64,000 nt of DNA from Promethearchaeota archaeon (GCA_019057795.1 JAHLWS010000070.1:128001-192000), one strand, 5' to 3'. Counted from the first letter of the stretch, positions 1 through 62,364 are shown. Numbers and translations: made by a program. Notes: generated from the letters alone by a model not told the origin.

Positions 1-72
1 CTTTTAACCTGAAGGTCGTGGGTTCGATATGCTCGTTCGAAAAGATCGGGTGCGAAATTCCCACATGGCCCG
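1..72 (+). tRNA. tRNA-Lys(UUU), 5'-truncated by window edge, with 30-nt T-loop intron (29..58)
   Basis: Anticodon loop CTTTTAA at 1-7; T-stem GTGGG(18-22)/CCCAC(60-64); acceptor 3' strand ATGGCCC + G; BHB with central helix TTCG/CGAA and bulges ATA/ATT. Confidence 0.88.
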
Positions 73-215
73 CTAATATTTTACTATTTGTAAAGGCTGA
101 GTTAAAATTTATTTTTAAAAGAAAAGTTTTGCATGAAATAATTAATCGAGTATGCATTAAAGGTAAATATAAAGATAGTTCGTTAAAACGAATAAGCTCT
201 CTTACAGCTAAAAAA

Positions 216-1232
216 ATGGTTGATATAGAATTTAAATTACCATCTGATGAACCCGAACAATTAATAGTTAAATCCCAAGACACTACTAACGAAGCATATG
301 GGTGTGAACCGGACAAAAGAGACATAGAGGCCCTCTTAAAATATGGTGTTATAAATTTAAATAAACCCAGTGGTCCAACAAGCCATGAAGTAGTCTCTTG
401 GGCCCGCAAGATTTTAGGAATTGATAACGCAGGACATGGGGGGACTTTAGATCCAAAGGTTACTGGAATATTACCTTGTGCGCTTGGTAAAGCTACCAGA
501 GTCTTGTCGGCATTATTGAATGCCGGTAAAGAATATGTAGGAGTTATGTATTTGCACACACCTGAGAAATTAAAAAAAATTGAAAAAGTATTTAAAATAT
601 TCACAGGTAAAATTTATCAAATGCCTCCTATAAAATCATCAGTAGTTCGAAAATTGAGAATAAGAGAGATATATTATGCTAAAGTGCTTGAGGTAAATAA
701 GAATCATGTATTATTTAAGGTCGGATGCGAAGCAGGTACTTACATCCGAAAATTATGTTTTGATATAGGTGAAGCTTTATGTTCAGGAGCACATATGCTA
801 GAATTAAGGCGAACTAGAGTAGGTAATTTTATAGAAGATAAAAGCCATGTAAACCTTCATAATCTAAAAGACGCGTATTCTATATACCGTGAAGAAGGTG
901 ATGACTATTATTTGAGGAAAGTAATTTCTCCTATGGAAAAAATGGTATCACATTTGCCAAAAATATATGTAAGAGATACTGCTGTTGATGCTTTATGTCA
1001 TGGTGCAGATTTAGCTTCTGCTGGAACGTGTTTTGTAGATGCACGAATCAATAATAATATGCAAATAGTTTACATGACGCTTAAAAAAGAATTAATTGGT
1101 TTTGGTACTGCTAAAATGAATGCAATCAAGATTTACAAGGCAAAATCTGGAATTGTGGCTAGAACCAATAAAATATTTATGGAACGAGGCATTTATCCTC
1201 GGTGGAACGAAATAATCAAAAACAAAAAGTAA
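216..1232 (+). CDS. cbf5: H/ACA RNA-guided pseudouridine synthase Cbf5 (TruB family, PUA domain)
   Basis: NKPSGPTSHEV, GHGGTLDPKVTG, CEAGTYIRKLC motifs; ATG 216 chosen because the ORF-track start overlaps the tRNA. Confidence 0.95.
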   Translation: MVDIEFKLPSDEPEQLIVKSQDTTNEAYGCEPDKRDIEALLKYGVINLNKPSGPTSHEVVSWARKILGIDNAGHGGTLDPKVTGILPCALGKATRVLSALLNAGKEYVGVMYLHTPEKLKKIEKVFKIFTGKIYQMPPIKSSVVRKLRIREIYYAKVLEVNKNHVLFKVGCEAGTYIRKLCFDIGEALCSGAHMLELRRTRVGNFIEDKSHVNLHNLKDAYSIYREEGDDYYLRKVISPMEKMVSHLPKIYVRDTAVDALCHGADLASAGTCFVDARINNNMQIVYMTLKKELIGFGTAKMNAIKIYKAKSGIVARTNKIFMERGIYPRWNEIIKNKK

Positions 1233-1246
1233 GAAAATATAAAAAT

Positions 1247-1885
1247 ATGAAGCAAAAGAACCAACATTATTCTACTCAGTTCCCAGATGTAAAAATTAAA
1301 GTTTATTCCGTTCCAGAAAGTTTAAAACAGCATTTATTCATTTTTAAAACTATCACGGGAGTTTTTTCATTTAAAAAAATAGATTTAGGAACTAAGGTTT
1401 TTATTGAGCACATGACCGTCCCAAAAAAACAGAGCGTTTTACTCGATCTGGGGTGCGGGTATGGTGCGATTGGAATTGTGTTAGCATATATATCACCTCA
1501 AAGCACAGTTTATCTAATTGATATAAATAAAAGAGCAATCTGGTGCACTAGGGAAAATATAAAATATAATTTATTGGATAGGACAAACAAAGTTATTACT
1601 TTATCAGGAAACTATTTTAAACCTATAAAAAATAAAAACATAAAGTTTGATGGAATTTATATGAATCCACCTTTACGCAATGGTAGAAGAGAATTTCTCA
1701 AGCTATGTGAAGAGGTTCCTTATTTTTTAAAGCCAAAAGGACTATTTCAATTCGTGATTAAAAAAAAAATGGGCGCAGAATATGTATTAAAATACATAAA
1801 TAGCAATTTTTCAAAGATATTCGATATCAAGATAATTTGTAAGAGATCTGGATACTGGGTTTTTGATCTAACTATATTAGATTAG
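1247..1885 (+). CDS. RsmC/MTS-family class I SAM methyltransferase
   Basis: GVFS..IDLGT, LDLGCGYGAIG, NPP, terminal GYWV. Confidence 0.85.
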   Translation: MKQKNQHYSTQFPDVKIKVYSVPESLKQHLFIFKTITGVFSFKKIDLGTKVFIEHMTVPKKQSVLLDLGCGYGAIGIVLAYISPQSTVYLIDINKRAIWCTRENIKYNLLDRTNKVITLSGNYFKPIKNKNIKFDGIYMNPPLRNGRREFLKLCEEVPYFLKPKGLFQFVIKKKMGAEYVLKYINSNFSKIFDIKIICKRSGYWVFDLTILD

Positions 1886-2003
1886 AGCAATAATTTTGAT
1901 TTTATTAATAATAAAATTCAAGAAAATTTTTTAGTAAAAATGGAAAATTTTTTTACAAATCGAATATTCTTTTAAAAAATACAGCAAGGAAAGAGGATTT
2001 TTT

Positions 2004-2261
2004 TTGACTAAAAAAAGAAAGATAGATGTTCTACTTCATGAGCTGGTTCCCAAACATTACCTTTTAACAAAAGAAGAATCGCAAAATTTGTTAGAAAAAT
2101 ATAAAATACATATTTCTGATTTACCTCAAATGTTTGAAAAAGATCCAGTAGCAATTGCAATTGGTGCAAAAGAAGGTGATATTGTTAAGATTGTTCGAGA
2201 TTCTCGTACAACAGTAAAATTCATAAATTATTATCGTTATGTCAAAAAAGAAAAAGTGTAA
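2004..2261 (+). CDS. rpoH: RNA polymerase subunit Rpo5 (H)
   Basis: HELVPKH, LPQ..DPV, GDIVKIVRDS, YYRYV; TTG start. Confidence 0.95.
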   Translation: MTKKRKIDVLLHELVPKHYLLTKEESQNLLEKYKIHISDLPQMFEKDPVAIAIGAKEGDIVKIVRDSRTTVKFINYYRYVKKEKV

Positions 2262-2306
2262 TTAATCTCTTTTATTGAAATTAATATTAAATAGGTTAGA
2301 CAAAAA

Positions 2307-5300
2307 TTGAGCGCTGAAAGATTATCTAATAACGATAAGTGGGTCGTTTTAAAAAGTTTATTTGATGAGAAGGGTCTAGTGCGTCAACATCTCGATTCTT
2401 ATAATATTTTTATTGAAGATGAAATGCAAAGTATAGTAGATGAATCGAATGAAGTAGTACCGGATATTCCCGGCTTCAAAATAAGTTTTGGGAAAATTAA
2501 GGTTGGGGTGCCTAAAGTCAGGGAAGCGGACGGTGCCACGATGGAAATCACACCTATTGAGGCTAGAATTCGAGAATTAAGTTATGCTGCGGATATTATA
2601 TTAGAAATGACCCCCATAACTATTGATGAACGAACTCAAAGGGAGGAAATGGAAGAGACACTTGATATATATATTGGTAAAATACCTATAATGCTAAAAA
2701 GTTGTCGTTGCCCTTTGGAAAACTTAACAGAACAAGAGTTAATTAACCGAGGAGAAGACCCACTTGATCCCGGTGGATATTTTATAATAAATGGGACTGA
2801 GCGCGTACTGGTGACGCAAGAAGATTTAGCTCCCAATAGAATTTTAGCGGAAGAGGCAAGTAGAAGTTCAAGTGCTACACATCAAGCAAAAGTATTTTCT
2901 ACGAGAAGTGGTTTTCGGGCACCTGTAACTATCGAAAGAAAGAAAGACGGAAATTTAAGAGTCTCGTTTCCTTCTGTTCCAGGCAAAATTCCGCTTGCGA
3001 TCTTAATGCGTGCCTTAGGGTTACACTCTGATAAAGAAATTTTTGAAGCCATTTCAGAAAATGATGATATTCAGAAAGAATTGATTCCAGTTATAGATGT
3101 TGCTTCGGAAATCCAAGTATTAAAAGATCCTGAAAAATCTCAACAAAATGCTTTAGATTATATAGGAAAGAGAGTCGCAATTGGGCAAACAAAGGATTAC
3201 CGAATTAGAAGAGCGCTTCAAGTTTTAGATAGATACCTTTTACCTCATATTGGAAATGCGGAAGAGGATCGAATAAAGAAAGCTTATTATTTAGGTCAAA
3301 TGGCTCAAAAAGTAATGGAACTCGCCTTAAAATTTCGTGAGTCTGATGATAAAGATCATTATGCCAATAAAAGATTGAAATTAGCTGGTGAATTATTTAC
3401 ATCCCTATTTAGAGTTGCGTTTTTAAATCTTGTAAAAGACATAAAGTACCAACTAGAACGTACCGCTGTTCGAGGGAGAGCTCCTAATATCAAAACTGCT
3501 GTGAGAGCGGATGTAATTACTGAAAGGATAAGACATGCTTTAGCAACAGGCAACTGGGTTGGAGGTAAAGCTGGCGTTAGTCAATTGTTGAATAGAACAA
3601 ATCATGTTGGGACATTAAGTCATTTAAGGAGAGTAATATCGCCATTAAGTAGAAGTCAACCGCATTTTGAAGCGAGAGATTTACATCCCACCCAATGGGG
3701 TAAGATTTGTCCAGCAGAAACCCCAGAGGGGCCAAACTGTGGTTTGGTTAAAAATCTTGGATTAGCTTCTATTATTTCTGTTGGCGCCGATGAGAGAATT
3801 ATTGAAAACATATTAATAGATTTAGGAGTAATTCCAATTAATGAAGTAAAAAGAATAAAAGGGGAAAAGGTAAATGTATTTCTTAATGGCAAATTAGTCG
3901 GTATTCATCAAAAACATAATCCCTTTTTAAATCAACTTAGAGAGAAGAGACGTAAAGGCGAGATTGGTCAACATGTGAATATTGGATATTATAACGATTC
4001 TAAAGAGATTCAAATAAATTGTGATGCAGGGAGAGCGACTAGACCATTATTTATAATTAAGAACAAACAAATCCTCATTACGAAAGAAGATGTAGAGAAA
4101 ATTAAACAAGGTAAGTATGCGTGGACAGATTTGATTGAGAAAGGTGTTATTGAATATCTAGACGCAGAAGAAGAAGAGAATTCTTATATTGCTATGTTTG
4201 AAGAAGATATTACGGCTGAACATACACATTTAGAGATTTCTCCTGCTGCTATTTTAGGAATATGCGCTTCAGTAATTCCATTTCCAGAACATAATCAATC
4301 TCCACGAAATACATACGAAGCGGGGATGGTTAAACAAGCATTAGGACTATTTGCTGCAAATATGCATTTAAAACTTGATACGCGTGGTCATACGCTTCAT
4401 TATCCTCAACTACCATTAGTTATAACGAGCCCAATGAAGATAATTGGAATTAATCGCCGACCAGCGGGACAAAACTTCATAGTTGGCATGATGAGTTTTG
4501 AAGGTTATAATATTGAAGATGCAATTATTATAAACAAATCCTCAATAGAACGCGGTCTCGCACGCAGTCATTTCTTCAGAACTTACGATGCCGAAGAAAG
4601 GAAATATCCCGGAGGAGAATTGGATAAATTTGAAATACCAGAAAGAGGCGTTAGAGGTTTCAAATCCGCTGAATCTTATCGATTATTATCTGAAGAAGAT
4701 GGAATTATCGAACCTGAAACCACTGTAGGGGGGGGCGATGTTTTAATAGGACGCACATCTCCTCCACGATTTATTAAATCTTACGAAGAATTTGAATTGA
4801 TGCAACCAAATAGAAGAGAAACTTCAAAAAATATGCGTCACAATGAGAAAGGAATTGTAGATACTGTAATTATTTCTGAAACTGTTGATGGTAATAAATT
4901 AGTAAAAATTAAAGTAAGAGACCTACGTATTCCTGAATTAGGAGATAAATTCTCTTCACGACATGGACAGAAAGGGGTACTGGGGTTAGTCCAGCCGGCG
5001 GAGGACATGCCTTTCACTTCAAATGGCGTAATTCCAGATATTATTGTAAATCCTCATGCTATGCCATCAAGAATGACCTTAGGACAGCTCTTTGAAGGAA
5101 TTAGTGGTAAAATTGCGTGTACAACCGGAGAATTAGGTGATGCAACAGCGTTCGAATGGAAAGATATTACGAAACTTCAAGATCAATTAGTAGAAGCGGG
5201 ATTTGAATTTAATGGAAGAGAGGTAATGTATAATGGAATTACAGGAGAAAAATATGAGGCAGGAATTTATTGCGCCCCAATTTATTATCAAAAATTGTAT

Positions 5301-5678
5301 CATCTTGTTGCAGACAAACTTCACGCAAGAGCAAGGGGGCCAGTTCAAATTCTAACTAGACAACCAACAGAAGGAAGAGCAAGAGAAGGAGGTTTACGAT
5401 TCGGCGAGATGGAACGAGATTGCTTAGTGGGTCATGGGTCCGCTTTATTATTAAAGGAAAGATTGCTTGATGAGTCTGATAGAACTGTAATTTTAGTTTG
5501 TGAGAAATGTGGGCTTTTAGCAGTTTACGATCGAAACAAAGATAAAAGATATTGTCCTATATGTGGACAAGGAACTGTAATATCAAAAGTAGTATGTTCT
5601 TATGCTTTTAAACTGCTACTCCAAGAAATGATGAGTTTAGGACTTGCGCCACGTCTAAAATTAAAAGAAAAAATTTAA
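2307..5678 (+). CDS. rpoB: RNA polymerase subunit Rpo2 (B), unsplit
   Basis: GGYFIINGTERV, CPAETPEGPNCGLVKN, GDKFSSRHGQKG, GGLRFGEMERDC, C-terminal Zn ribbon. Confidence 0.99.
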   Translation: MSAERLSNNDKWVVLKSLFDEKGLVRQHLDSYNIFIEDEMQSIVDESNEVVPDIPGFKISFGKIKVGVPKVREADGATMEITPIEARIRELSYAADIILEMTPITIDERTQREEMEETLDIYIGKIPIMLKSCRCPLENLTEQELINRGEDPLDPGGYFIINGTERVLVTQEDLAPNRILAEEASRSSSATHQAKVFSTRSGFRAPVTIERKKDGNLRVSFPSVPGKIPLAILMRALGLHSDKEIFEAISENDDIQKELIPVIDVASEIQVLKDPEKSQQNALDYIGKRVAIGQTKDYRIRRALQVLDRYLLPHIGNAEEDRIKKAYYLGQMAQKVMELALKFRESDDKDHYANKRLKLAGELFTSLFRVAFLNLVKDIKYQLERTAVRGRAPNIKTAVRADVITERIRHALATGNWVGGKAGVSQLLNRTNHVGTLSHLRRVISPLSRSQPHFEARDLHPTQWGKICPAETPEGPNCGLVKNLGLASIISVGADERIIENILIDLGVIPINEVKRIKGEKVNVFLNGKLVGIHQKHNPFLNQLREKRRKGEIGQHVNIGYYNDSKEIQINCDAGRATRPLFIIKNKQILITKEDVEKIKQGKYAWTDLIEKGVIEYLDAEEEENSYIAMFEEDITAEHTHLEISPAAILGICASVIPFPEHNQSPRNTYEAGMVKQALGLFAANMHLKLDTRGHTLHYPQLPLVITSPMKIIGINRRPAGQNFIVGMMSFEGYNIEDAIIINKSSIERGLARSHFFRTYDAEERKYPGGELDKFEIPERGVRGFKSAESYRLLSEEDGIIEPETTVGGGDVLIGRTSPPRFIKSYEEFELMQPNRRETSKNMRHNEKGIVDTVIISETVDGNKLVKIKVRDLRIPELGDKFSSRHGQKGVLGLVQPAEDMPFTSNGVIPDIIVNPHAMPSRMTLGQLFEGISGKIACTTGELGDATAFEWKDITKLQDQLVEAGFEFNGREVMYNGITGEKYEAGIYCAPIYYQKLYHLVADKLHARARGPVQILTRQPTEGRAREGGLRFGEMERDCLVGHGSALLLKERLLDESDRTVILVCEKCGLLAVYDRNKDKRYCPICGQGTVISKVVCSYAFKLLLQEMMSLGLAPRLKLKEKI

Positions 5679-5761
5679 GCAAATTATCTCATTTTTACTC
5701 TATTTACTATAATTTATCAATTAAATAACCAAACTTCAATTGTAAAATAAAAAAAATAGAT

Positions 5762-6187
5762 TTAAAGGCCAAATCCTAGGAATCCATAAAGCTCTGGTAT
5801 CATAGTATAGAGAAGAAACAAGAAAAACAATGTTAGTAAAGATATCCATACAGCTTGATCCCAAGAAAGGTCGATTAAAAATTTTGTTAAAATCAAAATA
5901 ATTAGAAATCCAATGACAGGCGTTAATTGAGTTAAATAGTTTGAGCCACTAAAAGCTATTAAATTACCAATTGCTCCTAATACTGAATTTATTGCTCCCA
6001 GAATTATTGGTAATATTAAAACGCAAATAAAAGCTAAGAGAATAATTAAAAATTTTTTATCAGAAGCTTTAGTTTTAGAAACAATAAGCAAAACCGAGAT
6101 GTAAATGATTAACGCGACAATTACAGTTGCTAGTATTAACCATAAAATAAAGAATAAAGTGCTTTCCCATTGAAATAACATTTTCAA
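5762..6187 (-). CDS. Hypothetical multi-pass membrane protein (~4 TM)
   Basis: Four long hydrophobic segments; fills a gap between genes. Confidence 0.7.
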   Translation of the reverse strand: MKMLFQWESTLFFILWLILATVIVALIIYISVLLIVSKTKASDKKFLIILLAFICVLILPIILGAINSVLGAIGNLIAFSGSNYLTQLTPVIGFLIILILTKFLIDLSWDQAVWISLLTLFFLFLLYTMIPELYGFLGFGL

Positions 6188-10918: not shown

Positions 10919-10968
10919 GCCTTAATAAATTTTAATAATATATATAGTTAGGAGTTATTGAGAAAAAA

Positions 10969-17503: not shown

Positions 17504-19267
17504 TTACAATTTACTACCACACTTATTACAAAACGCATAATCAGAGGATAAAATTGCCCCACATTGTTCGCAAACTAAGAGATCTTTAGATTTTGGCTCT
17601 TTTTTCTCTTCTTGAACAGTTTGGGTAGAAGTAATAGTTGTAAACTTACTATGTTCGCTTTCAATATCCGCAACATTAGGGATTATTCTCAGTTTAGATT
17701 TTTCTTCTTCTTCAGATTTTTTGGTTGCACTAAATAGTATGAAGGGAGTACTTTGATCAATAGAATTTTCTTCAAATTTTTGAGTGAGTGTTTGAAATAG
17801 TGAACTTGCTTCAGGTGTCGTGTCTAAAGGAGGAGTGGGAGGGATTGATTTTGAAGTTTTATGTTCAATTTGTTTTTCTTTCTTTTCCTTCTTTTCTTTC
17901 TTTAATGTTTTCATATCCTCAAGTAATTTTTCTTGCTTCTCCCGAGCTTCGAGGATTTTCTTTTCTTTTTCTTGTTTCTTTTTTTCTTTAGCAAGTTTTT
18001 TCATATCTTTTTTAGATAAAATAGTTTGAGGCATATAATCGATTAGTGATTCTGAAGAGGGTTGAGTAAGTGAAGTTTGAAAAAGTGGAGTTACGCTTGT
18101 TGGTTCTGCTTTTGATTCCGGAGTAGGCTCAAATGTCATAGAAGCAGGTTGAGGTTTGGGTGGTTCCTCTCTTTTCATTACGCGAAATGGTGTCTGAGTT
18201 GAAGGAACTACTTCCGATTTTTCAGATTTAATTGTTTGAAATTCCTTGGGTGGAGTTGCCGGCACTGGAATATTTGACGAAAATGGTATTGTTTGGGGTT
18301 TATAAACTTCACTTTCAACAGTTGAGGATTCTGGAAATATTGAAGGAAGTATTTCAGGTTCTGATTTCTCAGTTTTTTGAAGCAAAATTTCATCAGGCGT
18401 TTTAAATTCAATTTCTGTTGGTTCGGGCATTGATATTTCTGGTTCTGGTTGAGGTTCAAATGTTGGAAAAGGTTCGGGAACGGGGGGCGCCTCATATTCA
18501 ACCTCTGGTTCTGATTCGAAGGATGACATTTGTTCTGTCGATTTTATAGAGGGGGGTTCTGGAACAGGTGGAGCCTCAAATTCAATTTCAGGCTCGGGTT
18601 TAAAAGATTGTATTGGCTCAGGAACGGGTGGTGCTAAATATGCGTCTGTAGGTTCAGAAGGAGTTTCGCTAGGCGGAGGTGAGGGGGCGTCTCCTGGTGT
18701 AAAGACAGTTGCATTGGCGAGAAATTGTTCAGGTACACCTTGTCCTATCATTAGACAAGCAAGAATATAAAAACAATCTCCAACTCCATCACCTGTTTTA
18801 GCTGAAGTCTCCATATAATACAAGTTAAAATCTCTTGTAAACTTACTAATTTCTTCAATTGAAACTGCTCTTTGATCAATCAAATCACTCTTATTCCCAA
18901 CAAGTAATATAGGGATGTCAGTTTTGATATTAGCTCTAACTTCTTCAATCCATTGAGGTAAATGTTCAAAACTTGCAGAATTAGTAAGATCAAAAACTAA
19001 TACCGTACCTAATGAACCTCGATAATACATTGGTCTTATGGAACTAAAACGTTCTTGACCGCCTGTATCCCAAAGTTGAAGTTTACACTTAATAAGCCCT
19101 TCCGCCGTCTCTATTGCTATTGTTTTGACATGAAAATCAACACCAATCGTCATCTTGTAATCTTCTGTAAAGAATCCCTTTGAAAATCGAAGAGTTAGAG
19201 CAGTTTTACCAACTCCACCATCTCCTACCACGATTGATTTAAAAAGATAATCATACTCTTCAACCAT
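17504..19267 (-). CDS. Rab-like small GTPase with long Pro/Glu-rich tail and C-terminal Zn ribbon
   Basis: GDGGVGKT, TIGVDF, WDTGGQERF, YYRG, GNKSDL, ETSAK; CEQC-x10-CNKC. Confidence 0.92.
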   Translation of the reverse strand: MVEEYDYLFKSIVVGDGGVGKTALTLRFSKGFFTEDYKMTIGVDFHVKTIAIETAEGLIKCKLQLWDTGGQERFSSIRPMYYRGSLGTVLVFDLTNSASFEHLPQWIEEVRANIKTDIPILLVGNKSDLIDQRAVSIEEISKFTRDFNLYYMETSAKTGDGVGDCFYILACLMIGQGVPEQFLANATVFTPGDAPSPPPSETPSEPTDAYLAPPVPEPIQSFKPEPEIEFEAPPVPEPPSIKSTEQMSSFESEPEVEYEAPPVPEPFPTFEPQPEPEISMPEPTEIEFKTPDEILLQKTEKSEPEILPSIFPESSTVESEVYKPQTIPFSSNIPVPATPPKEFQTIKSEKSEVVPSTQTPFRVMKREEPPKPQPASMTFEPTPESKAEPTSVTPLFQTSLTQPSSESLIDYMPQTILSKKDMKKLAKEKKKQEKEKKILEAREKQEKLLEDMKTLKKEKKEKKEKQIEHKTSKSIPPTPPLDTTPEASSLFQTLTQKFEENSIDQSTPFILFSATKKSEEEEKSKLRIIPNVADIESEHSKFTTITSTQTVQEEKKEPKSKDLLVCEQCGAILSSDYAFCNKCGSKL

Positions 19268-32506: not shown

Positions 32507-32620
32507 CTCCAGAACATACCCCCTCTACAATATAATTAACTCATCTCACCTCTCAATTTCGAAACTAATTATAGTCTAACATTCTACACAAATCTCACTC
32601 ACTCTAAGCCTGAACCTTGA
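32507..32620 (-). other. 3' strand of the 23S pre-rRNA processing stem with BHB half-site
   Basis: Complementary to 35975-36097; BHB half CAG-GCTT-AGA-GTG (32600-32612). Confidence 0.8.
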
Positions 32621-32635
32621 GCTCCTCTTTCGAAT

Positions 32636-35964
<3,329 letters not shown>

Positions 35965-35974
35965 GTCTACTTAA

Positions 35975-36097
35975 GGAAAGATTCAGATTGCTTGTGAAAA
36001 GACTTGTGTATTCAGAGACTATAAATATTTGAAAATTGAAATTTAAATTTTATTGAGACGAAAATATTCTATATTATATCTATGGGGAGTATGTTCT
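35975..36097 (-). other. 5' strand of the 23S pre-rRNA processing stem with BHB half-site
   Basis: BHB half CAC-AAGC-AAT-CTG (35984-35996) pairs with trailer; AGAACATACTCCCC pairs with GGGGGTATGTTCT. Confidence 0.8.
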
Positions 36098-36110
36098 TAT
36101 GAGCACGTTT

Positions 36111-36176
36111 TTCGTTTTTTTTCGTTTCAGTTCGTTTTTTTTCGTTTCAGTTCGTTTTTGTTCGTTTCGTGTTCGT
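36111..36176. repeat. 10-nt-periodic TTCGTTT repeat in rRNA leader
   Basis: TTCGTTT starts at 36111, 36121, 36131, 36141, 36151, 36161. Confidence 0.9.
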
Positions 36177-36180
36177 GCTT

Positions 36181-36348
36181 GGTCCGGAGCCCTTAAACAA
36201 CCGAGGAATTGGTCGTTTTAGGCACTCATTTCCTGTAGCATCAGGCATATTGACCGAAGTCACTTCTGATTAACTTCCATGAGGCCGGTACCTGTTATTG
36301 ATGGTATTTCATCGATTTTCGATGAGATAATTTTCTCAGCCAATAACG
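36181..36348 (-). ncRNA. Structured 5' leader (ETS-like) of the 23S transcript
   Basis: Closing GGT.CCGG/CCGGACC, CTCAT/ATGAG, ATCAG/CTGAT, TGAC-TTCG-GTCA tetraloop hairpin, GTTATTG/CAATAAC. Confidence 0.55.
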
Positions 36349-46351: not shown

Positions 46352-46458
46352 AGCGGGGTGGGCTAGCCTGGTTTATGCCGCAGGGCTCATAACCCTGAGA
46401 ACACTGGTTCAAAAGATTTTGATTGATTTACAACAATCTGAGATTCCAGTCCCCGCTA
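46352..46458 (+). tRNA. Initiator tRNA-Met(CAU) with 31-nt T-loop intron (46414..46444)
   Basis: AGCGGGG/CCCCGCT (A1-U72), CAGGG-CTCATAA-CCCTG with three G-C pairs, T-stem ACTGG/CCAGT; BHB TTCA/TGAG with bulges AAA/ATT. Confidence 0.93.
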
Positions 46459-47915: not shown

Positions 47916-48212
47916 ATGAGAGTATATCTTAAAATCCATCGTCGAAATGGTATCGATACGGTTGCATGTTGCGATGAGTTGTTATTAAGCCAAATTTTTA
48001 TTGAGGGCAATTTGAAAATTGAAATTAACGATCGCTTTTTTGGGGGCGATCTTCTAAACATAGATAAGGCAGGAGATTTGTTAAAAAGGGCGTCGTACTT
48101 TAATATAGTGGGTGAAAATATAATCAATAAGGCAATTGCCCTTAAAATCCTTTCTAAAGAAGGAGTTAAAAAAATTAATAATATTCCAATGGCAATAAAA
48201 ATGATGTTTTAA
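47916..48212 (+). CDS. DUF424-family protein
   Basis: VACCDELLL, FFGG, NIVGE, I.NIP. Confidence 0.88.
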   Translation: MRVYLKIHRRNGIDTVACCDELLLSQIFIEGNLKIEINDRFFGGDLLNIDKAGDLLKRASYFNIVGENIINKAIALKILSKEGVKKINNIPMAIKMMF

Positions 48213-49129
48213 TGCCTCATAGATTTTGTGCAATATGTGGAAAGGCTCTAGAAGAAAAAGCGCCTTATTTTGGTATGTGCCTTAACTGTTTTTTAAAAGA
48301 AAATCCATTATTCGAATTGCCAAAAAGTATCAGTTTTAAAATGTGTAGCGATTGCAGGAAATATTCAAAAAAAGAAGAATGGATTGAACCTGTTGAAAAT
48401 GAACTATTTCCTATTATAGAAGAGGTAATATCTCGATTTTTATTAAAATCTTATTTAAAACAAGATTTAATCACCTTTTCATTCTCATTTGAAGAATTAA
48501 TGTTTACTCATAAAGATTTGTTATCTTCTTTTGATCTTACAATTACAGGAATTTTGAGAGAAGATCATAAAATAACTCATCAACAAACGATAAAAGTCAA
48601 AATAAATTACGAATTATGTAAAAATTGCTCTAATTTAAGAGGGGGAATGTATTTTTTATCAATTATTCAATTACGGGTAAAAAATGAGAATCAATTTGAG
48701 ATTATTAATAAAGTTTTGGATGATATCCTTTATCTTGTAGAGAATATCTTTAAAAAAGACGATAAACAATATATTTCAAAAATGGAAGATCAAAAACTTG
48801 GTGTGGATTTGTATTTAAGTACGAATGAGTTAATGAAACACATAGTTTCACATTTAAAGTCAAAATATAATTTTATTTTAAAAAGAACAAAAAAGCTAGT
48901 AGGGAGAGATGCTCAAAAGGGAAGAAATCTCTATAGATTAAAAACACTTATAAAATTTTTACCAATTAAAAAAAATGACTATATTTTTATAAACAAATCC
49001 AAATATTTTGTAGAGAATATTACCAAAAATAGGGTTTTGTTAAGAGATGAAAACCATGTTAAACTCATAAAAAACTTTTCTTTTTTTGATGGTAAAAAAT
49101 CGTTTAAAAGGATTATGGATGGGGATTAA
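48212..49129 (+). CDS. nmd3: NMD3-family large-subunit maturation protein
   Basis: CxxC pairs, CKNC...IIQLR, GVDLY, LVGRD..GR.LYR; TAATG overlap with DUF424 gene. Confidence 0.88.
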   Translation: MPHRFCAICGKALEEKAPYFGMCLNCFLKENPLFELPKSISFKMCSDCRKYSKKEEWIEPVENELFPIIEEVISRFLLKSYLKQDLITFSFSFEELMFTHKDLLSSFDLTITGILREDHKITHQQTIKVKINYELCKNCSNLRGGMYFLSIIQLRVKNENQFEIINKVLDDILYLVENIFKKDDKQYISKMEDQKLGVDLYLSTNELMKHIVSHLKSKYNFILKRTKKLVGRDAQKGRNLYRLKTLIKFLPIKKNDYIFINKSKYFVENITKNRVLLRDENHVKLIKNFSFFDGKKSFKRIMDGD

Positions 49130-49993
49130 GTGGAGAAAAAAAACAATGGTTTTATTGATGAAGATGAGGAAGAACTTAAAAAACAAATTTCAAATGATAA
49201 TTTTAATAAAAAATTTAATACAAGATTAGATGATTTGGAAAAAAAGAGGATTGATTCAATAAGAATTAAAAAAATTGATCAAACTAAAAAAAGAGCCACT
49301 GTAGATTCTGTTTTTGATGAAAGAATGTATTTACATATAAATAAATTATTAAAAACTGGACATTTAAACCGAATTGAAGGGATAATTTCTGCAGGTAAGG
49401 AAGCAAATGTTTACCTTGCTTACGGTGAAAATAATCGCGAAGTTGCGATAAAGATTTATAAGATTGATAGTAATACATCAAGATGGATGAGAAATTATAT
49501 TATAGGAGATCCTAGATTTAAAAAAATACCACATAATATATCAAAAATTATATATTTATGGGCAAGTAAAGAGTTTAAAAATCTTAAAAGGGCATATAAA
49601 GCTGGTTTGAGCGTACCTGAGCCTATCTATATAAAAAACAATATTTTAATCATGGAATATATTGGTTTTGGACCAATTCCTGCACCAAAACTTAAAGATA
49701 TAAAGTTTCCAAAGGAACCTATTAACCTATTAAATGAAGTTCTTGGTTTTATTAAAAGCTTATATCAAAATGCAAACTTAGTTCATGGTGATTTATCCGA
49801 ATTTAATATTTTATATCATAATCAAAAACCAATTGTAATTGACATCTCACAAGCAGTCACTACATATCATCCAAAAGCAGAAGTTTATTTAGTGAGAGAT
49901 ATTAAGAACATTTTTAATTATTTTGAAAAAATTGGAGTTGAAATTCCTAATCCAGAGGATTTTTATTACGAAGTTATAAATTTAGATAAATAA
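49130..49993 (+). CDS. rio1: RIO-type serine/threonine kinase Rio1
   Basis: VFD, SAGKEANVY, YIIGDPRF, WASKEFKNL, HGDLSEFN, IDISQAV. Confidence 0.95.
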   Translation: MEKKNNGFIDEDEEELKKQISNDNFNKKFNTRLDDLEKKRIDSIRIKKIDQTKKRATVDSVFDERMYLHINKLLKTGHLNRIEGIISAGKEANVYLAYGENNREVAIKIYKIDSNTSRWMRNYIIGDPRFKKIPHNISKIIYLWASKEFKNLKRAYKAGLSVPEPIYIKNNILIMEYIGFGPIPAPKLKDIKFPKEPINLLNEVLGFIKSLYQNANLVHGDLSEFNILYHNQKPIVIDISQAVTTYHPKAEVYLVRDIKNIFNYFEKIGVEIPNPEDFYYEVINLDK

Positions 49994-54813: not shown

Positions 54814-54862
54814 ACTTAATATCCTTTTTATTTATCAATTATAATTATTATATGATAACTAA

Positions 54863-55879: not shown

Positions 55880-55894
55880 CGTTCACTTCAAATT

Positions 55895-56497
55895 TTAATT
55901 TGTAGTTATTTCTTCTCTTTCCCATTCTTTTAAATATTTATTAAAATCCTCAAGCATAATTTGTCTGGATATTTTAATTTTGTTTTTATATTCGAGTTTT
56001 TTAATTTTTAACATAATCTTTTTATTCTTTTTTAAGTGTTCTAGAGCTTTAGGATATTCATCTCTAAAAATCTCTTTAATATCATCAAAATCCGTATTTT
56101 TTAGGAAATCGTAATATCTAATTACATAATTACATAATGGATCAATACTTATTTCAAAATTAAAAGCATCAACTTGTTTTAAAGCCAAGGGGTAAGCCTT
56201 GCATGCTAGTGGTTTAATTTCCTGTACTTTACAACCATTTTTTTTATCATAAAAAGGGCATCCCTGAGTTTCGTTGTCCAATCGTATTTTATATGTCACA
56301 ACAAGTATTTTTTTGTTTAAAATGTCTGGAAATACTAAATCCTCGATAATTTTAAAGGCAATACCTTTTTTTTTAGCGATTTCTATTAATTTATTTGCCT
56401 CTTTAGGATATATTGGTATTCTTTTTTTGGAACCAAAAATTTCATAACAGCATATCCCGCATTTTAGACATTCATATTTTAGCTCAGTCAATTCCAA
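55895..56497 (-). CDS. YkgJ/FliB-family CxxCxxCC cysteine-cluster protein
   Basis: CLKCGICC, CPFY, C.V...KPLACKAYP. Confidence 0.88.
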   Translation of the reverse strand: MELTELKYECLKCGICCYEIFGSKKRIPIYPKEANKLIEIAKKKGIAFKIIEDLVFPDILNKKILVVTYKIRLDNETQGCPFYDKKNGCKVQEIKPLACKAYPLALKQVDAFNFEISIDPLCNYVIRYYDFLKNTDFDDIKEIFRDEYPKALEHLKKNKKIMLKIKKLEYKNKIKISRQIMLEDFNKYLKEWEREEITTN

Positions 56498-56691
56498 AAA
56501 ATTACCTTTTTCAGATGATATTGAAATGAAAACCTCATTATATTTATAGATACCTTAAAAAATTAATTTATGTGATAATATTAATATATTACTTTAACAG
56601 TAAATCATGAGTCTATTAGGATAACACATTGATTTAAAGACATAAAAAAGATTCTAATTATATCGTATAAACAATACTTAAGGTAAAAAAA

Positions 56692-57507
56692 TTGACTGAG
56701 TCTGGGATAAGGATTATTAAACATAATGATATTAAAGAAGAAGAATTCAAGGACCCTATTTGTATTTTAGGAATGCCAGGCATCGCTGATGTTGGAAAAT
56801 TCGCTATAGATTCCTTAATTGGACAATTAGATGCCCAAAGTTTTATGGATTTTATATTTGATGATTACCCCGCTGGAGCTATAGTTGATGATAGTCTATT
56901 ATCAGCACCTAAAGCAGAAATTCTTTTTTGGAAAGATCCAAGTTATCGAAGAGATATTCTTTTAATTACTGCAGATGCGCAAAGTTTAACACCTAAAGGC
57001 ATATATAGAATTTCAAATTTTCTTACAGAGATAATAGATCAATGTAAAATTAAGTTGATAATTGCTTTGGGAGCGTATCCCGTAAATAGTCGCAAGATAG
57101 ATTCAAAAATTCCAAAAATATTTGCAAGTTCAACTAACCGAGAACTGTTAGATAATTTTTTATCAAAAAATAACTGTGAAAAAATCCAAAAAGGGGTTAT
57201 TATTGGTGCTAATGGGTTAATCCCAACTTTAGCAAAAGCGAGATTTAATATAGATGGGATTGTTCTTTTGGCAGAAACTGATAATATGGCAATGCTTAAT
57301 GAAGATATCACCGATTTAAAAGCTTCAATAACGCTCTTAGAAATGATTAAGAAATCTTTTATGTTACCAATTAAAAAGAAATATTCCCTTGATAATATTG
57401 AAGATATTACAAAAAATCTTCAAAGTAAAAGAGATCAACTAGAAAAAGATCTCGGTACATTTCAATTTGTTGATATTGACGATAAGAGAAAGTCATTATA
57501 CATTTAA
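56692..57507 (+). CDS. PAC2-family proteasome assembly chaperone
   Basis: GMPGIADVGK, DAQS, ALGAY, IIGANG, LLAET, C-terminal LYI (HbYX-like). Confidence 0.85.
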   Translation: MTESGIRIIKHNDIKEEEFKDPICILGMPGIADVGKFAIDSLIGQLDAQSFMDFIFDDYPAGAIVDDSLLSAPKAEILFWKDPSYRRDILLITADAQSLTPKGIYRISNFLTEIIDQCKIKLIIALGAYPVNSRKIDSKIPKIFASSTNRELLDNFLSKNNCEKIQKGVIIGANGLIPTLAKARFNIDGIVLLAETDNMAMLNEDITDLKASITLLEMIKKSFMLPIKKKYSLDNIEDITKNLQSKRDQLEKDLGTFQFVDIDDKRKSLYI

Positions 57508-57607
57508 AATTATTTATTTTTTTTACATGATTTATGTTTTTAGGAATTCTACTAACAACTTTAATTATTTGCGAAAAATATTTTAACAATAATTCATTTT
57601 AAAAAAT

Positions 57608-57757
57608 ATGAAGTATGTTTGCGCTAGAAAAAGTTGTGGAAAAGAAGTCTCTAAAAAAGAATTAAACGCTCTTCCTGGAATAAAATGTTCCCACTGTGGA
57701 TTTCGCATCTTATACAAAAAACGCCCTGATGTTATAAAAAGAATTAAAGGGATATAA
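57608..57757 (+). CDS. rpoP: RNA polymerase subunit Rpo12 (P), 49 aa, below ORF-track cutoff
   Basis: Own translation MKYVCARKSCGKEVSKKELNALPGIKCSHCGFRILYKKRPDVIKRIKGI. Confidence 0.9.
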   Translation: MKYVCARKSCGKEVSKKELNALPGIKCSHCGFRILYKKRPDVIKRIKGI

Positions 57758-57787
57758 AACTTTATTAATTTGAAAGTAAGATTTTTT

Positions 57788-58723
57788 TTAAACGCGATCT
57801 ATGGATTCATATCTCATATGATTTACAAGTTCTTTATATCTGTTCCGTATAGTAGCTTCAGTTACACCTGCTGCTAATGAGATCTCTTTTTGAGTCCGGC
57901 GTTCTCCTTCTTGTATCGCCGCTACATATAAAGCAGCACCCGCTAGACCAGTGGGTGCTTTTCCATCAGTAATATGATATTTTTTTGCTAATTTTAATAA
58001 TTCTGCTGCTCGATTCTGAGTTCTTCCTGAAAGTTTTAATTCAGCACAAAATCTAGGGATAAAATTTATTGGAGAGGAAACTTGAATATTTATTTTTAAT
58101 TCGATTAGAATTAACCTATAACAACGAGCAATTTTTTTTTTATCGACTAAAGCAAATTCGATAAAATCATCCAAAGTTTTCGGAATATTATTCAACCTGC
58201 ATGATAAATAAATGGAAGCTATCAACATTGCCTCAATAGATCTTCCTCTTATTAGATTTTTATGAGCCATTTTTCTGTAAATATGAGCAGCCGATTCTTT
58301 TAAGGCTTTGGACAGATTCAGTTGAGAAGAAAAGCGATCTAATTCGTTCATAGCATAAGCTAAATTTCGATCTATTGATTTATTTGTCCTCGTTCTTACA
58401 TGCCATTTTCTTAAGCGATATACTTCAGCTTTCATTTTTGGGCTGATACTTTTGCCGAACGCGTCTTTATTTTTCCACCCAATCATAGTACTTAATCCTT
58501 TATCATGAATTGTCAAAGTTGTTGGCGCTCCTACTCTAGCTTTTTTATTGGCTTCTTCTGAAGAGAAAGCTCTCCATTCAGGACCAGAATCAATGAGATT
58601 TTGGCTCAAAACTAAACCGCATACATTGCAAATTAACTCACCACGGGTGCTATCAGAAATCAGATTTGTATTCCCACATTCTGGGCATAAATTTAAATTA
58701 TTTTGAAGCATTGAAAGATCCAA
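57788..58723 (-). CDS. tfb: Transcription initiation factor IIB
   Basis: CPECG..RGELIC..CG, GPEWRAF, HDKGLST, RGRSIE, VTEATIRNRYKE. Confidence 0.97.
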   Translation of the reverse strand: MDLSMLQNNLNLCPECGNTNLISDSTRGELICNVCGLVLSQNLIDSGPEWRAFSSEEANKKARVGAPTTLTIHDKGLSTMIGWKNKDAFGKSISPKMKAEVYRLRKWHVRTRTNKSIDRNLAYAMNELDRFSSQLNLSKALKESAAHIYRKMAHKNLIRGRSIEAMLIASIYLSCRLNNIPKTLDDFIEFALVDKKKIARCYRLILIELKINIQVSSPINFIPRFCAELKLSGRTQNRAAELLKLAKKYHITDGKAPTGLAGAALYVAAIQEGERRTQKEISLAAGVTEATIRNRYKELVNHMRYESIDRV

Positions 58724-58891
58724 TTACTTATACCCACACATATTTCAATTCCTTAATTTCTATAATTAAAGTCATACTTTTAAATGTTTGCGTTTTTAGG
58801 ATTTATCAGTTAATAAAAATCACATTTTAAAATTTTTGTTTTTAATATTTCACCGAAAAATTTTAATAATTTATATTTTTCTGATTATATA

Positions 58892-59338
58892 ATGCGACAT
58901 TTTTATAAAAGTCATGGTAAGCATTGTTATCTTCGATCTTTTCAGACATCTTGCAGAAAGTGTGGTGCAGATGTGTTATATTGGGAATGCACTCATGGAA
59001 GTAAAATTTTTTTTGAGTACCCACCTTATGGAAAATTGCGAAGACATTATTGTCGGAACCTTAATAGAATATCACATAAAAGAAAAATTTTTCCAGTTGT
59101 TGTTAAAAAACCTAAAGGTCTTTTGGAGAACCCTTATTTCAGTTGTCCAGTGTGTGGGAAATTGTTTAGAAAAGAAATATATTTAAAAGATCATCTAAAT
59201 GAACTAAAAAAAAATGATTCCAAGCATAAATTATTTTTTCAAAATAAAATAATATTTAAAAATAAATTTAACGATATGAATAAATTTCGTGACAAACCTA
59301 GGTTTGGGAGAATTAATATAAGGGCATCAAAAAAATAA
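58892..59338 (+). CDS. Zinc-finger protein (CxxC/His cluster plus C2H2-like finger)
   Basis: CRKCG...ECTHGSK...HYC; CPVCGKLF....LKDHL. Confidence 0.7.
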   Translation: MRHFYKSHGKHCYLRSFQTSCRKCGADVLYWECTHGSKIFFEYPPYGKLRRHYCRNLNRISHKRKIFPVVVKKPKGLLENPYFSCPVCGKLFRKEIYLKDHLNELKKNDSKHKLFFQNKIIFKNKFNDMNKFRDKPRFGRINIRASKK

Positions 59339-59445
59339 AATTCAAACCCATAACATTTTAATAAAAATTTTATAATTATATTTATACTAATATATTATTA
59401 TTAATTCTTCACTAGGATATATAAATCTAAAAAATTGAGGAAAAA

Positions 59446-60054
59446 ATGACAACTGATCCAGCAACCGTTATTTATAATTTATTGCAAAAAGATCCCAGTA
59501 TTATTGCTGCTGCTGTAGTTCAAGGAAGAGATAACATTCTTCACTCAACAGATAACTGGGACATTAGCCCTGATATTGCTAAAGTTAGTTCAAGTTGGAA
59601 CAGCTTAAACGCTCAGTTTATCATGATTTCTGGTGTAAAATATTCTGTGCTTCAATGTACATCAGAAAGGATAGTAGCTACTTCAATGCGGGGCGAAGGA
59701 CATATAATTGGAGCAAAAGATGGAGAACACAAAGTAATAATATACCTTGAACCAGATGGTGAACCTATGGGAGCAACGATGGACACATCAAGAGCAGTTT
59801 CAGAGTTAAGTGCAAAACAAGCTTATGTGGGTGCTGATACTCAATTTAGTGGAAACGGTGTAACCCCTGCACCTGTTGCAGGAAAAAGTATAGACCCTCA
59901 ATTAAAAGGGGAAATTCAGTCTTTCTTAGAATGGATTAAAGATGGCGAGGGGCTTTCAGGATATATTAATTATTATCTTCAACAAAATAACGCCCATATC
60001 ATATCTGAACTTTCAAAAATCTATAGCGAGTTAAGGCAAATATTTGGAGTGTAA
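59446..60054 (+). CDS. Profilin-like protein with C-terminal helical extension
   Basis: TDNWDIS, ISGVKYSVLQ.T.ERIV, GEGHII match the pattern of Lokiarchaeal profilins; ~80 extra residues. Confidence 0.78.
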   Translation: MTTDPATVIYNLLQKDPSIIAAAVVQGRDNILHSTDNWDISPDIAKVSSSWNSLNAQFIMISGVKYSVLQCTSERIVATSMRGEGHIIGAKDGEHKVIIYLEPDGEPMGATMDTSRAVSELSAKQAYVGADTQFSGNGVTPAPVAGKSIDPQLKGEIQSFLEWIKDGEGLSGYINYYLQQNNAHIISELSKIYSELRQIFGV

Positions 60055-60139
60055 TTTGACTTTTAACTATAGTGATATTATTGGAAAGCTCTCAGAAAAA
60101 ACATAAAAACAATCAAAAATCTTCAAAAAGTAATGACAA

Positions 60140-60595
60140 ATGCCTCTTTCCAACAAATTACCTTCCAAAAATCAAAATTCTCAAAATAGCGACGAGCGAA
60201 AAAAAGTGGTTAAACAACCAAAAAAAAAGTTTGAAAAAAGAAAATCAGTGTATATGACTGATGAGGATTTAGAAATGGATATACCCTTAGTTCCTGAAGC
60301 ACCAAAAAAGTTAACGGTTAATTCTCGAGGTCTTTCTACTGACTTGCTTATTGAAATGAAAAAGCTTGAATCGGAAAAAATAAAAGTAGTTTTAGTTAAT
60401 TGTGAACGGTGTAAAAAAATAATCCCCGTGCCAATTCCAAAGAAATTTATATCAAAATCAAAGCTACCTGTTGTTCCCATAAGTTATATTCACAAAAACC
60501 CTCAAAATAAAGATCAACATTGTATAACTCTTCATGTTGATCATGATTTTGATATACGTCGGCAACGTATATCAGATGTTGTTTTTTCTCCTTAG
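60140..60595 (+). CDS. Hypothetical protein with C-terminal CxxC...H...H domain
   Basis: CERC...IH...HCITLHVD..F.IRR. Confidence 0.7.
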   Translation: MPLSNKLPSKNQNSQNSDERKKVVKQPKKKFEKRKSVYMTDEDLEMDIPLVPEAPKKLTVNSRGLSTDLLIEMKKLESEKIKVVLVNCERCKKIIPVPIPKKFISKSKLPVVPISYIHKNPQNKDQHCITLHVDHDFDIRRQRISDVVFSP

Positions 60596-60604
60596 TAAAT
60601 ATAT

Positions 60605-60826
60605 TCACATTAAATAAGTAACGACCACGATAATAAAAGGAATTAAACATAATAGACAGATAAAAGCAATAAAACTATTTCTCCATTTCAAATCGTTAGG
60701 ATTAAGAATTGCATTGCAATTTTCACAATATTTCTGGTTTGGGTCAATTATTTCACTATCACAGTTATAACATCGTGTTAGCGCATTATTCTTTTTATTT
60801 GTAGAATTGTGTTTAGACCTAGACAT
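60605..60826 (-). CDS. Small Zn-ribbon protein with C-terminal TM anchor
   Basis: CYNC-x11-CENC then hydrophobic C-terminal helix. Confidence 0.6.
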   Translation of the reverse strand: MSRSKHNSTNKKNNALTRCYNCDSEIIDPNQKYCENCNAILNPNDLKWRNSFIAFICLLCLIPFIIVVVTYLM

Positions 60827-60939
60827 TAAATTCAAAGACTTATATTATTTAATAGAATTAAAAAAATGCTGTAAGCTATATTATATAATTCTCAATTTAA
60901 ATAAAATTATAAATTCATTGTTTAATTGGTGAATAATCG

Positions 60940-61752
60940 ATTTCTGGTTATATAGGCAAAAGAATTAGATTAGAACGAATTTTTAATAGGGAAACAAATA
61001 AGACGATCATAGTTCCTATGGACCATGGATTAACTGTAGGGCCTATTAAAGGAATTAAAAGAAGTTTAGGAGAAATGGTAAATAAAATAGCATTAGGGGG
61101 CGCAAATGCCGTTTTAGGGCATATTGGGATTCCATTATACGCCCATAGAGGATATGGTCCAGATATTGGCTTAATTTTACATTTATCTGGTTCAACCTCT
61201 CTAAGTCCCAAGTCAAATTATAAAGTTTTAGTAAATAATGTATTAGATGCAGTAAAATTAGGAGCCGATGGTGTATCTTTGCATATTAATATTGGAACAA
61301 AGGCAGATCCAGAAATGCTAGAGATTCTAGGAGCAGTTTCACGTGAATGCCGAGAGTTTGGAATGCCCCTTTTGGCTATGATGTATCCTAGAGGGGAAAA
61401 TATCGAAAACGAACACGATGTTGAGGTCGTTAAAATAGCAGTAAGAGTCGCTGCGGAACTAGGGGCAGATATTGTGAAAACTAATTGGACGGGAGACCCA
61501 GATTCTTTTAATGAAGTAATTGAGGGGTGCATGGCACCAGTAATTATCGCGGGAGGGGTTAAGGCGGGGATTAAAGAACTTTTGGAAATAACTAAGCAAT
61601 CCATAGATGTTGGAGGCGCTGGAGTTGCCTATGGAAGAAATGTATTTCAAGCGGATAATCCTACAAAAGTTGTGAAAGCGCTTTATCTAGTTGTTCACAA
61701 AAATTATGAAGTAGAAGAAGCCATTAAAGAAACAAACATAAAAGGTCTATAA
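60940..61752 (+). CDS. Class I (DhnA-type) aldolase: ADH synthase AroA'/fructose-bisphosphate aldolase family; probable ATT start
   Basis: GKRIRLERIF upstream of PMDHG, AMMYPRG, ELGADIVKT, IAGG, GRNVFQ. Confidence 0.9.
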   Translation: MSGYIGKRIRLERIFNRETNKTIIVPMDHGLTVGPIKGIKRSLGEMVNKIALGGANAVLGHIGIPLYAHRGYGPDIGLILHLSGSTSLSPKSNYKVLVNNVLDAVKLGADGVSLHINIGTKADPEMLEILGAVSRECREFGMPLLAMMYPRGENIENEHDVEVVKIAVRVAAELGADIVKTNWTGDPDSFNEVIEGCMAPVIIAGGVKAGIKELLEITKQSIDVGGAGVAYGRNVFQADNPTKVVKALYLVVHKNYEVEEAIKETNIKGL

Positions 61753-61791
61753 AACGCAAATTTATTAAATCAAAAATAGTATTTATAAGAA

Positions 61792-62160
61792 ATGAGACCC
61801 ATAATCGAAAAAACTAAAGAGATTGATAAGGCTAAGATTTATTTATCGCTTTTTAAATTGCATAAAAGTTATCTCTTGCTTATCTCTGATCAAGAAAACA
61901 GAGGTATCGGAAATGTAACTTTAGGAAGCCCACCTACAATTGAAGGAATGAAAGCGTCATCAGTTACACATCAGTTATTCGGAGTCCAAAGAAAATTATT
62001 AAGCAAAATTATTGTTGAAAAGACATCTTCTTATCTTAATGCCCCAGTATTATTATTGTTGTTTTTAAAATCAGTAGAAAACGAAAATGAGATCGTAAAA
62101 ACGCTGATCTTATTCTTAAATGAAGCGTTAAATGAAATCTCTAACAATACTGATAAATAA
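61792..62160 (+). CDS. PAC4-like proteasome assembly chaperone candidate
   Basis: LLLIS...IGNVTLGSP...LFG..LSKII.EK...PVLLLL pattern. Confidence 0.55.
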   Translation: MRPIIEKTKEIDKAKIYLSLFKLHKSYLLLISDQENRGIGNVTLGSPPTIEGMKASSVTHQLFGVQRKLLSKIIVEKTSSYLNAPVLLLLFLKSVENENEIVKTLILFLNEALNEISNNTDK

Positions 62161-62200
62161 TTAAAGAGGTTGAAATGAGCCCTATTTTGAAGAGGAAAAA

Positions 62201-62364
62201 TGCAGAGAAGGGGATTTGAACCCCTGTAGACCTATGTCAATGGATCTTGAGTGTGGTTCAAAAACGCAAAAGATTACGGTTTTTGAAAATGTCCATCACC
62301 GGTTGCCGCTTTATTATTCCTTATGGAAATAATTCTTGCTTTGACCTGGCTTGGTTATCTCTGC
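62201..62364 (-). tRNA. tRNA-Leu(CAA) with two non-canonical introns (D-loop ~62302..62340; position 32/33 ~62251..62290)
   Basis: GCAGAGA/TCTCTGC acceptor, ATGGA-CTCAAGA-TCCAT after splicing, long variable arm, AGGGG-TTCAAAT-CCCCT. Confidence 0.9.

Follow-up and report, generated by a model that had tools for sequence, protein, structure and literature searches.

We analysed a 64,000-nucleotide (nt) stretch of DNA from a Promethearchaeota archaeon (GCA_019057795.1 JAHLWS010000070.1:128001-192000), hereafter the window, which is positions 128001-192000 of contig C70 in a genome of 4.95 Mb, 87 contigs and 31% GC (G000). The window holds three transfer RNA (tRNA) genes and one 23S ribosomal RNA (rRNA) gene, and we conclude that the precursors of all four RNAs are very probably substrates of the splicing endonuclease EndA and that they sample an intron-rich state extending over the whole genome. 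The host is assigned by sequence to Lokiarchaeia (Promethearchaeota, Asgard): the alpha subunit of its EndA is 75-97% identical across metagenome-assembled genomes (MAGs) of Promethearchaeota, in agreement with the Asgard origin proposed in an earlier note made from this DNA.

The tRNA genes are invisible to standard tools. ARAGORN run over the whole window returned zero tRNAs, and so did Rfam, both at the gathering cut-off and at E<=5, its sole match being the archaeal large subunit (LSU) rRNA. We located the three genes by reading the GC-rich intergenic islands and deleting candidate inserts in silico. Removal of the inserts turns the three undetected loci into canonical cloverleafs, with ARAGORN scores of 119.8 for tRNA-Lys(UUU), 121.1 for the initiator tRNA-Met and 113.9 for tRNA-Leu(CAA). 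The tally is thus three tRNA genes and four introns (30, 31, 39 and 40 nt), none of them at the canonical position 37/38, which is the count that the earlier note had given.

Two of the genes carry one intron each, in the T-loop at position 59/60 and within a strict bulge-helix-bulge (BHB) motif. The tRNA-Lys(UUU) gene (G000:C70:127969-128072, plus strand; window 1..72) begins 32 nt upstream of the window, with its 3′ two-thirds inside, and its 30-nt intron (29..58, plus strand) has the hBHBh′ form UUCG AU|A ... CGAA AU|U, in which all four pairs of the central helix are present, the outer helix is the 5-bp T-stem and the inner helix has 6 bp. The minimum free energy fold of this precursor reproduces the motif, with the T-stem, the 4-bp helix and two 3-nt bulges. 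The initiator tRNA-Met gene (46352..46458, plus strand) shows the identity elements expected of an initiator, namely an A1:U72 pair and an anticodon stem with three G-C pairs, and its 31-nt intron (46414..46444, plus strand) is bounded by UUCA AA|A ... UGAG AU|U, with four of four central pairs, 5 outer pairs and 4 inner pairs.

The third gene, the class II tRNA-Leu(CAA) (62201..62364, minus strand), carries two introns that were found by exhaustive double deletion scored with ARAGORN. Intron 1 (62302..62340, minus strand, 39 nt) lies in the D-loop at 21/22 and has a relaxed BHB, GGUC:GGCA, with three of four pairs; its junction, GGUCAA|CGGUG, is set by relatives that have no D-loop insert. 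A placement at 22/23 was rejected, there being no BHB at that position and the relatives placing the junction at 21/22. Intron 2 (62251..62290, minus strand, 40 nt) lies at 32/33, again with a relaxed BHB, AUGG:CCAC, of three pairs in four, and with a 9-bp inner helix.

The 23S rRNA gene (32633..35966, minus strand) was delimited by its Rfam LSU match and measures 3334 nt against a model of 2987 positions. No 16S gene was found inside the window, and the 23S is not linked to one there. Folded together (-108 kcal/mol), the two flanks of the gene make a long processing stem, inside which lies a canonical 3-4-3 BHB in the order helix, 3-nt bulge AGA on the 3′ strand, AAGC:GCUU, 3-nt bulge AAU on the 5′ strand, helix. 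The 5′ strand (35978..35998, minus strand) reads UUCAC / AAGC / bulge AAU / CUGAAUCUU, with a predicted cut at 35988/35987, and the 3′ strand (32598..32618, minus strand) reads AAGGUUCAG / GCUU / bulge AGA / GUGAG, with a predicted cut at 32604/32603. The distance from the BHB to the mature ends predicted by the Rfam model is 21 nt on the 5′ side and 30 nt on the 3′ side. Such a flank-flank helix with a 3-4-3 BHB is what archaeal rRNA processing stems have and is nothing unusual; EndA cuts the BHB of these stems, and circular pre-rRNA results (PMC7714728; PMC12918454).

Within the gene, the Rfam alignment of the last 600 model positions contains two insertions, one in helix 91 (34 nt in place of 3) and one of 191 nt in helix 98, while no insert longer than 9 nt occurs in model positions 1-733, which correspond to the 5′ 737 nt of the gene. 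The helix 98 insertion (32740..32930, minus strand) is expansion segment 39 (ES39), whose 191 nt are of the size class of the supersized ES39 in Lokiarchaeota (B5) (PMC7594248), and it is not an intron candidate. The helix 91 insertion contains a candidate mini-intron of 30 nt (33185..33214, minus strand) with the arrangement GCAC AU|A, 9-bp inner helix, GCGC AU|A. It sits in the loop of helix 91, adjoining the A-loop helix 92, and its predicted excision leaves CGCACAUAA, the 9-nt loop of relatives that have no insert.

Comparison with those relatives supports its being an intron. We gathered the helix 91 region from ~30 family members and aligned 21 of them. Nine of the 21, including the same-genus genomes G001 and G047, are free of insert and have a hairpin of the type GGGAG-CGCAC(A/C)UAA-CUCCC with a 9-nt loop, and the other 12 carry 30-38 additional nt at a single exact position. 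All 12 insert-bearing genomes show GCAC NN|N, then immediately an inner helix of 3-9 bp, GYGY NN| and then AAC. The inner-helix sequences are unrelated between genera and the cut register is nevertheless constant. Cutting 2 nt past each strand of the central helix yields exactly the allele found in the nine insert-free genomes. In G000 the central helix has three of four pairs, with an A-C mismatch; in four relatives all four pairs form. We classify the motif as a relaxed, HBh′-like BHB on the basis of these sequences. A different register, with symmetric 5-nt bulges around CGCA:UGCG, was discarded, as it fits only G000 and G060. The stem and the helix 91 insert had both been proposed in the earlier note, and the co-fold and the register kept in all 12 relatives bear this out.

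Helix 91 is not the only such site. In a survey of the 3′ two-thirds of the 23S gene, with 19 genomes aligned, we found seven further sites with inserts of 29-36 nt (one of 62 nt), each occupied in one or two genomes, which brings the family to at least 8 mini-intron sites in the 23S. The central helix is complete (4/4) in all 11 inserts at the seven other sites; eight of them have it at the exact alignment boundary and three are two nt off. A BHB score was passed by 55% of 22 inserts in the 23S, helix 91 included, compared to 2.3% of 427 displaced controls. In one relative, G043, the 3′ two-thirds of the 23S has six short inserts (five of 30-32 nt and one of 62 nt) versus one in G000. Longer inserts of 120-209 nt also occur in several relatives (L094, L095, L097, L099, L105 and L109), at two more sites of domain V corresponding to ~2661 and ~2848 of the G000 23S.

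Next we turned to the tRNA genes of the whole genome; the earlier note had named mostly intronless or canonical tRNAs outside the window as a finding that would speak against its reading. The census pooled strict BHB removal, acceptor-anchored relaxed BHB removal, motif-free single deletions and alignment to compact tRNAs; the strict-BHB search alone started from 453,416 candidates genome-wide and gave 12 tRNA genes with a single intron and one with two. Two other approaches were set aside. Detection of tRNA loci by GC islands was dropped because it overlooked Lys(UUU), Leu(CAA) and one Gln gene, and ARAGORN -i, which was not used for intron positions, misassigned many loci, for example Trp as "Glu(ttc)", Ser(CGA) as "Leu(caa)" and Glu(CUC) as "Lys(ctt)".

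The census found 13 compact tRNA genes versus ~32 interrupted ones (~45 in total, ~70% interrupted). Resolution of 29 interrupted genes gave 37 introns, with three further multi-intron loci standing outside this intron tally, and 31 of the 37 resolved introns (~84%) are non-canonical. The result thus goes against a genome of mostly intronless or canonical tRNA genes. Only six introns are at 37/38, in Thr-UGU, Arg-CCU, Tyr, Ser-UGA, Ser-GGA and Ser-CGA (that of Tyr was put there by eye from the sequence, the automatic listing having printed 35). The others fall at positions 15-28 of the D-arm (n=12), at 59/60 (n=9, in nine different tRNAs), at 42-47 (n=5), at 58/59 (n=2), at 32/33 (n=2) and in the acceptor stem at 6/7 (n=1). 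Position 59/60 is a hot spot, which together with 58/59 accounts for 11 of the 37, and the modal intron length is 30 nt.

In tRNA-Ser(GCU) (G000:C70:5454-5568, plus strand) a 31-nt insert interrupts the acceptor stem after nt 6, and the gene scores 117.9 in ARAGORN once it is removed. The three multi-intron loci resemble tRNA genes of 160-210 nt, with well-formed acceptor and T-arms and at least 2-3 inserts each; they are C52:1159-1320 (plus strand), C73:95200-95409 (minus strand) and a further minus-strand locus on C73, possibly Phe(GAA), and part of the missing set of Phe, Asn, His and Cys genes is probably to be found among them.

We also examined the enzymes that would process these precursors. 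Pfam searches found two EndA genes in G000, on C69 (200 aa) and C74 (201 aa), both matching PF01974 and PF02778 and each having an N- and a C-terminal EndA domain. As the two proteins are only 32% identical, they are true paralogs and not strain duplicates. The C69 protein (alpha) has the Aeropyrum pernix alpha subunit as its best match (3p1z_B, E=4e-34) and, in alignments to 3p1z_B and 1a79, keeps the Tyr-His-Lys triad. Its "ISKPR" aligns with "VEKPR" of A. pernix, so that K58 corresponds to K44, the lysine of the crenarchaeal-specific loop; the M. jannaschii enzyme aligns to it from residue 69 on only. In the C74 protein (beta), Ser replaces the catalytic His of M. jannaschii. This sequence architecture, two paralogs with the triad in alpha only and a loop lysine, is that expected of an (alpha-beta)2 EndA with an L1 loop, of the broad-specificity type, and agrees with the relaxed EndA that had been postulated. 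In Asgard archaea, an (alpha-beta)2 EndA with an L1 loop has been tied to cleavage of relaxed BHBs (Kaneta 2018, PMC5829648). A gene for RtcB lies 15 kb upstream of the window.

Under this hypothesis, all three tRNA precursors, and that of the 23S, would be substrates of the (alpha-beta)2 EndA. The enzyme would cut four introns from tRNA-Lys(UUU), the initiator tRNA-Met and tRNA-Leu(CAA) and a 30-nt intron from the loop of 23S helix 91, and would free the 23S from its transcript at the canonical BHB of the processing stem; RtcB would then join the ends left by EndA. Gene structures, motifs, the make-up of the enzyme and the presence or absence of inserts in relatives are direct observations, from which we infer the cleavage and ligation. 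The maturation of the initiator tRNA-Met, tRNA-Lys, tRNA-Leu and 23S would in that case depend on EndA and RtcB.

Several points weigh against this reading. The splicing of the window RNAs is deduced from their sequence, three of the five window introns carry a mismatch in the 4-bp central helix, the outer helix at helix 91 is offset by one unpaired C, and the exact boundary of intron 1 of tRNA-Leu(CAA) depends on the comparison with relatives. The assembly, moreover, is a MAG with an estimated contamination of 7.5%. This last point, together with its 87 contigs and the rejection of the loci by standard finders, could suggest that these are pseudogenes or errors of assembly and that the functional tRNA copies lie elsewhere. 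We consider this extremely improbable, as no compact copy of Lys(UUU), initiator Met or Leu(CAA) was found in G000 and relatives that were assembled independently have these genes interrupted too, with conserved exons and diverged introns. It is also quite improbable, if less so, that the ~30-nt inserts of the 23S, at helix 91 and elsewhere, are expansion segments kept in the mature ribosome. Large retained expansions do exist in the Lokiarchaeial 23S, as ES39 illustrates (PMC7594248), and the helix 91 insert lengthens the hairpin there and has a fold that none of 200 shuffles equals in stability (z = -3.7). However, an expansion segment would have no reason to conserve a BHB motif, whereas the cut register is kept in every insert-bearing genome despite unrelated intron sequences, the 3′ end of the insert always rebuilds the native loop so that the predicted product is the insert-free allele, and the complete central helices at the other 23S sites and the BHB pass rate over all 22 inserts point in the same direction. 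We therefore favour excision by EndA over retention for these inserts.

A separate question is how the introns come and go. Four family members have no intron in their single initiator tRNA gene, and in other relatives this gene has an intron at 37/38 only, at 59/60 only, in the variable region with or without one in the T-loop, or at both 37/38 and 59/60; four configurations occur inside the genus of G000. The 32/33 intron of Leu(CAA) was seen in this genus only (G000, G022 and G036), and the D-loop site of the same gene is filled in several other genera and empty in G022 and G036. The insert content of the 23S, too, differs between genomes of one genus. As the orthologues of the initiator tRNA-Met, Leu(CAA) and 23S genes differ in intron content within a genus, we conclude that turnover is fast.

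Such variation within one genus, the uniform length of ~30 nt and the occupation of 59/60 in nine different tRNAs could indicate that the introns are multiplying at present by copying from gene to gene, a transposition of the Thermoproteales type. We hold this to be unlikely. In an all-against-all comparison of 27 G000 introns no pair exceeded the shuffled controls, the best score being 0.33, between paralogous Gln tRNAs, versus a shuffle maximum of 0.44. Copy-and-paste spread is thus unsupported, because the introns share no similarity beyond that of shuffles. Likewise, in other Asgard families 1.5% of introns belong to cross-isotype families versus 28% in Thermoproteales (bioRxiv 10.64898/2026.10.13.758758), and the reuse of one site by unrelated sequences fits site permissiveness with fast sequence drift equally well. 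Of the "actively spreading" population that the earlier note had described, the fast turnover within the genus stands and the copying does not, the introns sharing no sequence families. Its further proposal that splicing is a shared control point for translation found no support, and any regulation of this kind is speculation.

The initiator tRNA also shows a peculiarity in its T-stem, which is CUGG/CCAG in G000 and G060 versus GUUCG/CGAAC in nearly all relatives (L119-L146 compared). In those relatives the T-loop intron has an inner hairpin, GCUGG..UCCAGC, which the G000/G060 stem resembles, and from these sequences the odd stem may reflect a re-registration between intron and exon.

Furthermore, we considered whether a single population of ~30-nt, EndA-dependent mini-introns colonises the tRNA, 23S and messenger RNA (mRNA) genes of Lokiarchaeia and turns over between congeneric species, a broader hypothesis that we regard as evenly balanced between true and false. 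An mRNA example would be uL11. In the only uL11 gene of the genome (G000:C73:108700-108985, minus strand) the N-domain profile is matched from position 26 only, and the GGPP, GPAVGPTGIN and downstream segments lie in different frames, split by two short hairpin-bearing inserts, with GPAVGPTGIN encoded by a micro-exon between the two.

The tRNA-intron and EndA parts of these findings are already published (PMC5829648; PMC11291895; bioRxiv 10.64898/2026.10.13.758758). Introns interrupt 92-95% of the tRNA genes of Atabeyarchaeia and Freyarchaeia (Valentin-Alvarado 2024, PMC11291895), and a motif-free census of Asgard introns reported repeated gains, with no general arrival route in the other Asgard families (bioRxiv 10.64898/2026.10.13.758758). 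Non-canonical and multiple tRNA introns are likewise known from Thermoproteales (Sugahara 2008 and Fujishima 2010, as cited in other papers). The G000 introns resemble those of Thermoproteales and other Asgard archaea in being bounded by BHBs outside 37/38 (D-arm, anticodon stem-loop, variable region and T-loop), in that several can occur per gene and in being overlooked by standard finders. They differ from the published tRNA introns of both groups in the strong 59/60 hot spot, and from those of Thermoproteales in the absence of sequence families. With ~1 intron per tRNA gene, G000 is near the "other Asgard families" of the preprint (0.91) and not its focal families (2.2) (bioRxiv 10.64898/2026.10.13.758758). 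The enzyme, for its part, is like that of Aeropyrum pernix (3P1Z, 3AJV; PMC3241643), which also consists of two ~200-aa paralogs, with the triad and the "KPR" lysine in alpha and no His in beta, but its beta subunit is closer to the M. jannaschii EndA (1a79) than to crenarchaeal beta subunits.

The 23S mini-introns are the less familiar part. BHB introns in rRNA genes are mentioned in PMC6125680, and those of crenarchaea, such as the 16S introns of Thermoproteales (PMC4496867), share with the inserts described here a BHB at the boundary, a helix restored by removal and a polymorphic presence. In contrast to the crenarchaeal introns, the Lokiarchaeial ones are ~30 nt long (29-38), which leaves no room for a homing endonuclease, they occupy many sites of the 23S, and their modal length equals that of the G000 tRNA introns. 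A literature search found no description of ~30-nt BHB introns in Asgard rRNA, which is weak evidence, and the 23S mini-intron population seems to be a new, undescribed element. They sit near the peptidyl-transferase region, in helix 91 and at other sites of domains IV-V. If RNA data confirm them, the known range of rRNA BHB introns would come to include Asgard archaea, in a minimal form of 30 nt.

These results have consequences for annotation and for the evolution of splicing. Standard tools find none of the three window tRNAs and recover about one third of the G000 tRNA genes, as compact genes; annotation of Lokiarchaeial MAGs will therefore miss tRNAs and give the 23S a wrong size. A single endonuclease and a single ligase appear to be required for the initiator tRNA, for the large rRNA and for those other tRNAs of which there is no compact copy. 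Because the same gene has different introns in sister species, the family constitutes a natural system for the arrival and loss of protein-spliced introns. If a single mini-intron population does occupy all RNA classes, splicing by the endonuclease and RtcB would be a general step of expression rather than a tRNA speciality, and this would place a general protein-enzyme splicing in close prokaryotic relatives of eukaryotes.

The window contains other features of note. Upstream of the 23S stem, on the minus strand, lie a tandem array with a 10/20-nt repeat, CGAAA-rich on the RNA strand (36108-36177), and a GC-rich stretch of 136 nt (36165-36300) whose fold has two hairpin domains (z = -2.35); Rfam has no family for either. 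When the window was screened for mRNA introns, only false positives and no mRNA intron came out, and the genome-wide version of the screen was too permissive for use. Among the window candidates that were rejected, NMD3 and RIO1 are separate genes, a Ras-like GTPase is intact, and a candidate at 58.8 kb has no support in the family. The NMD3 gene is directly followed by the RIO1 kinase gene, forming a ribosome-biogenesis pair (48212-49993, plus strand), and a Ras/Roc-family GTPase of 587 aa with a C-terminal zinc ribbon is encoded at 17504-19267 on the minus strand.

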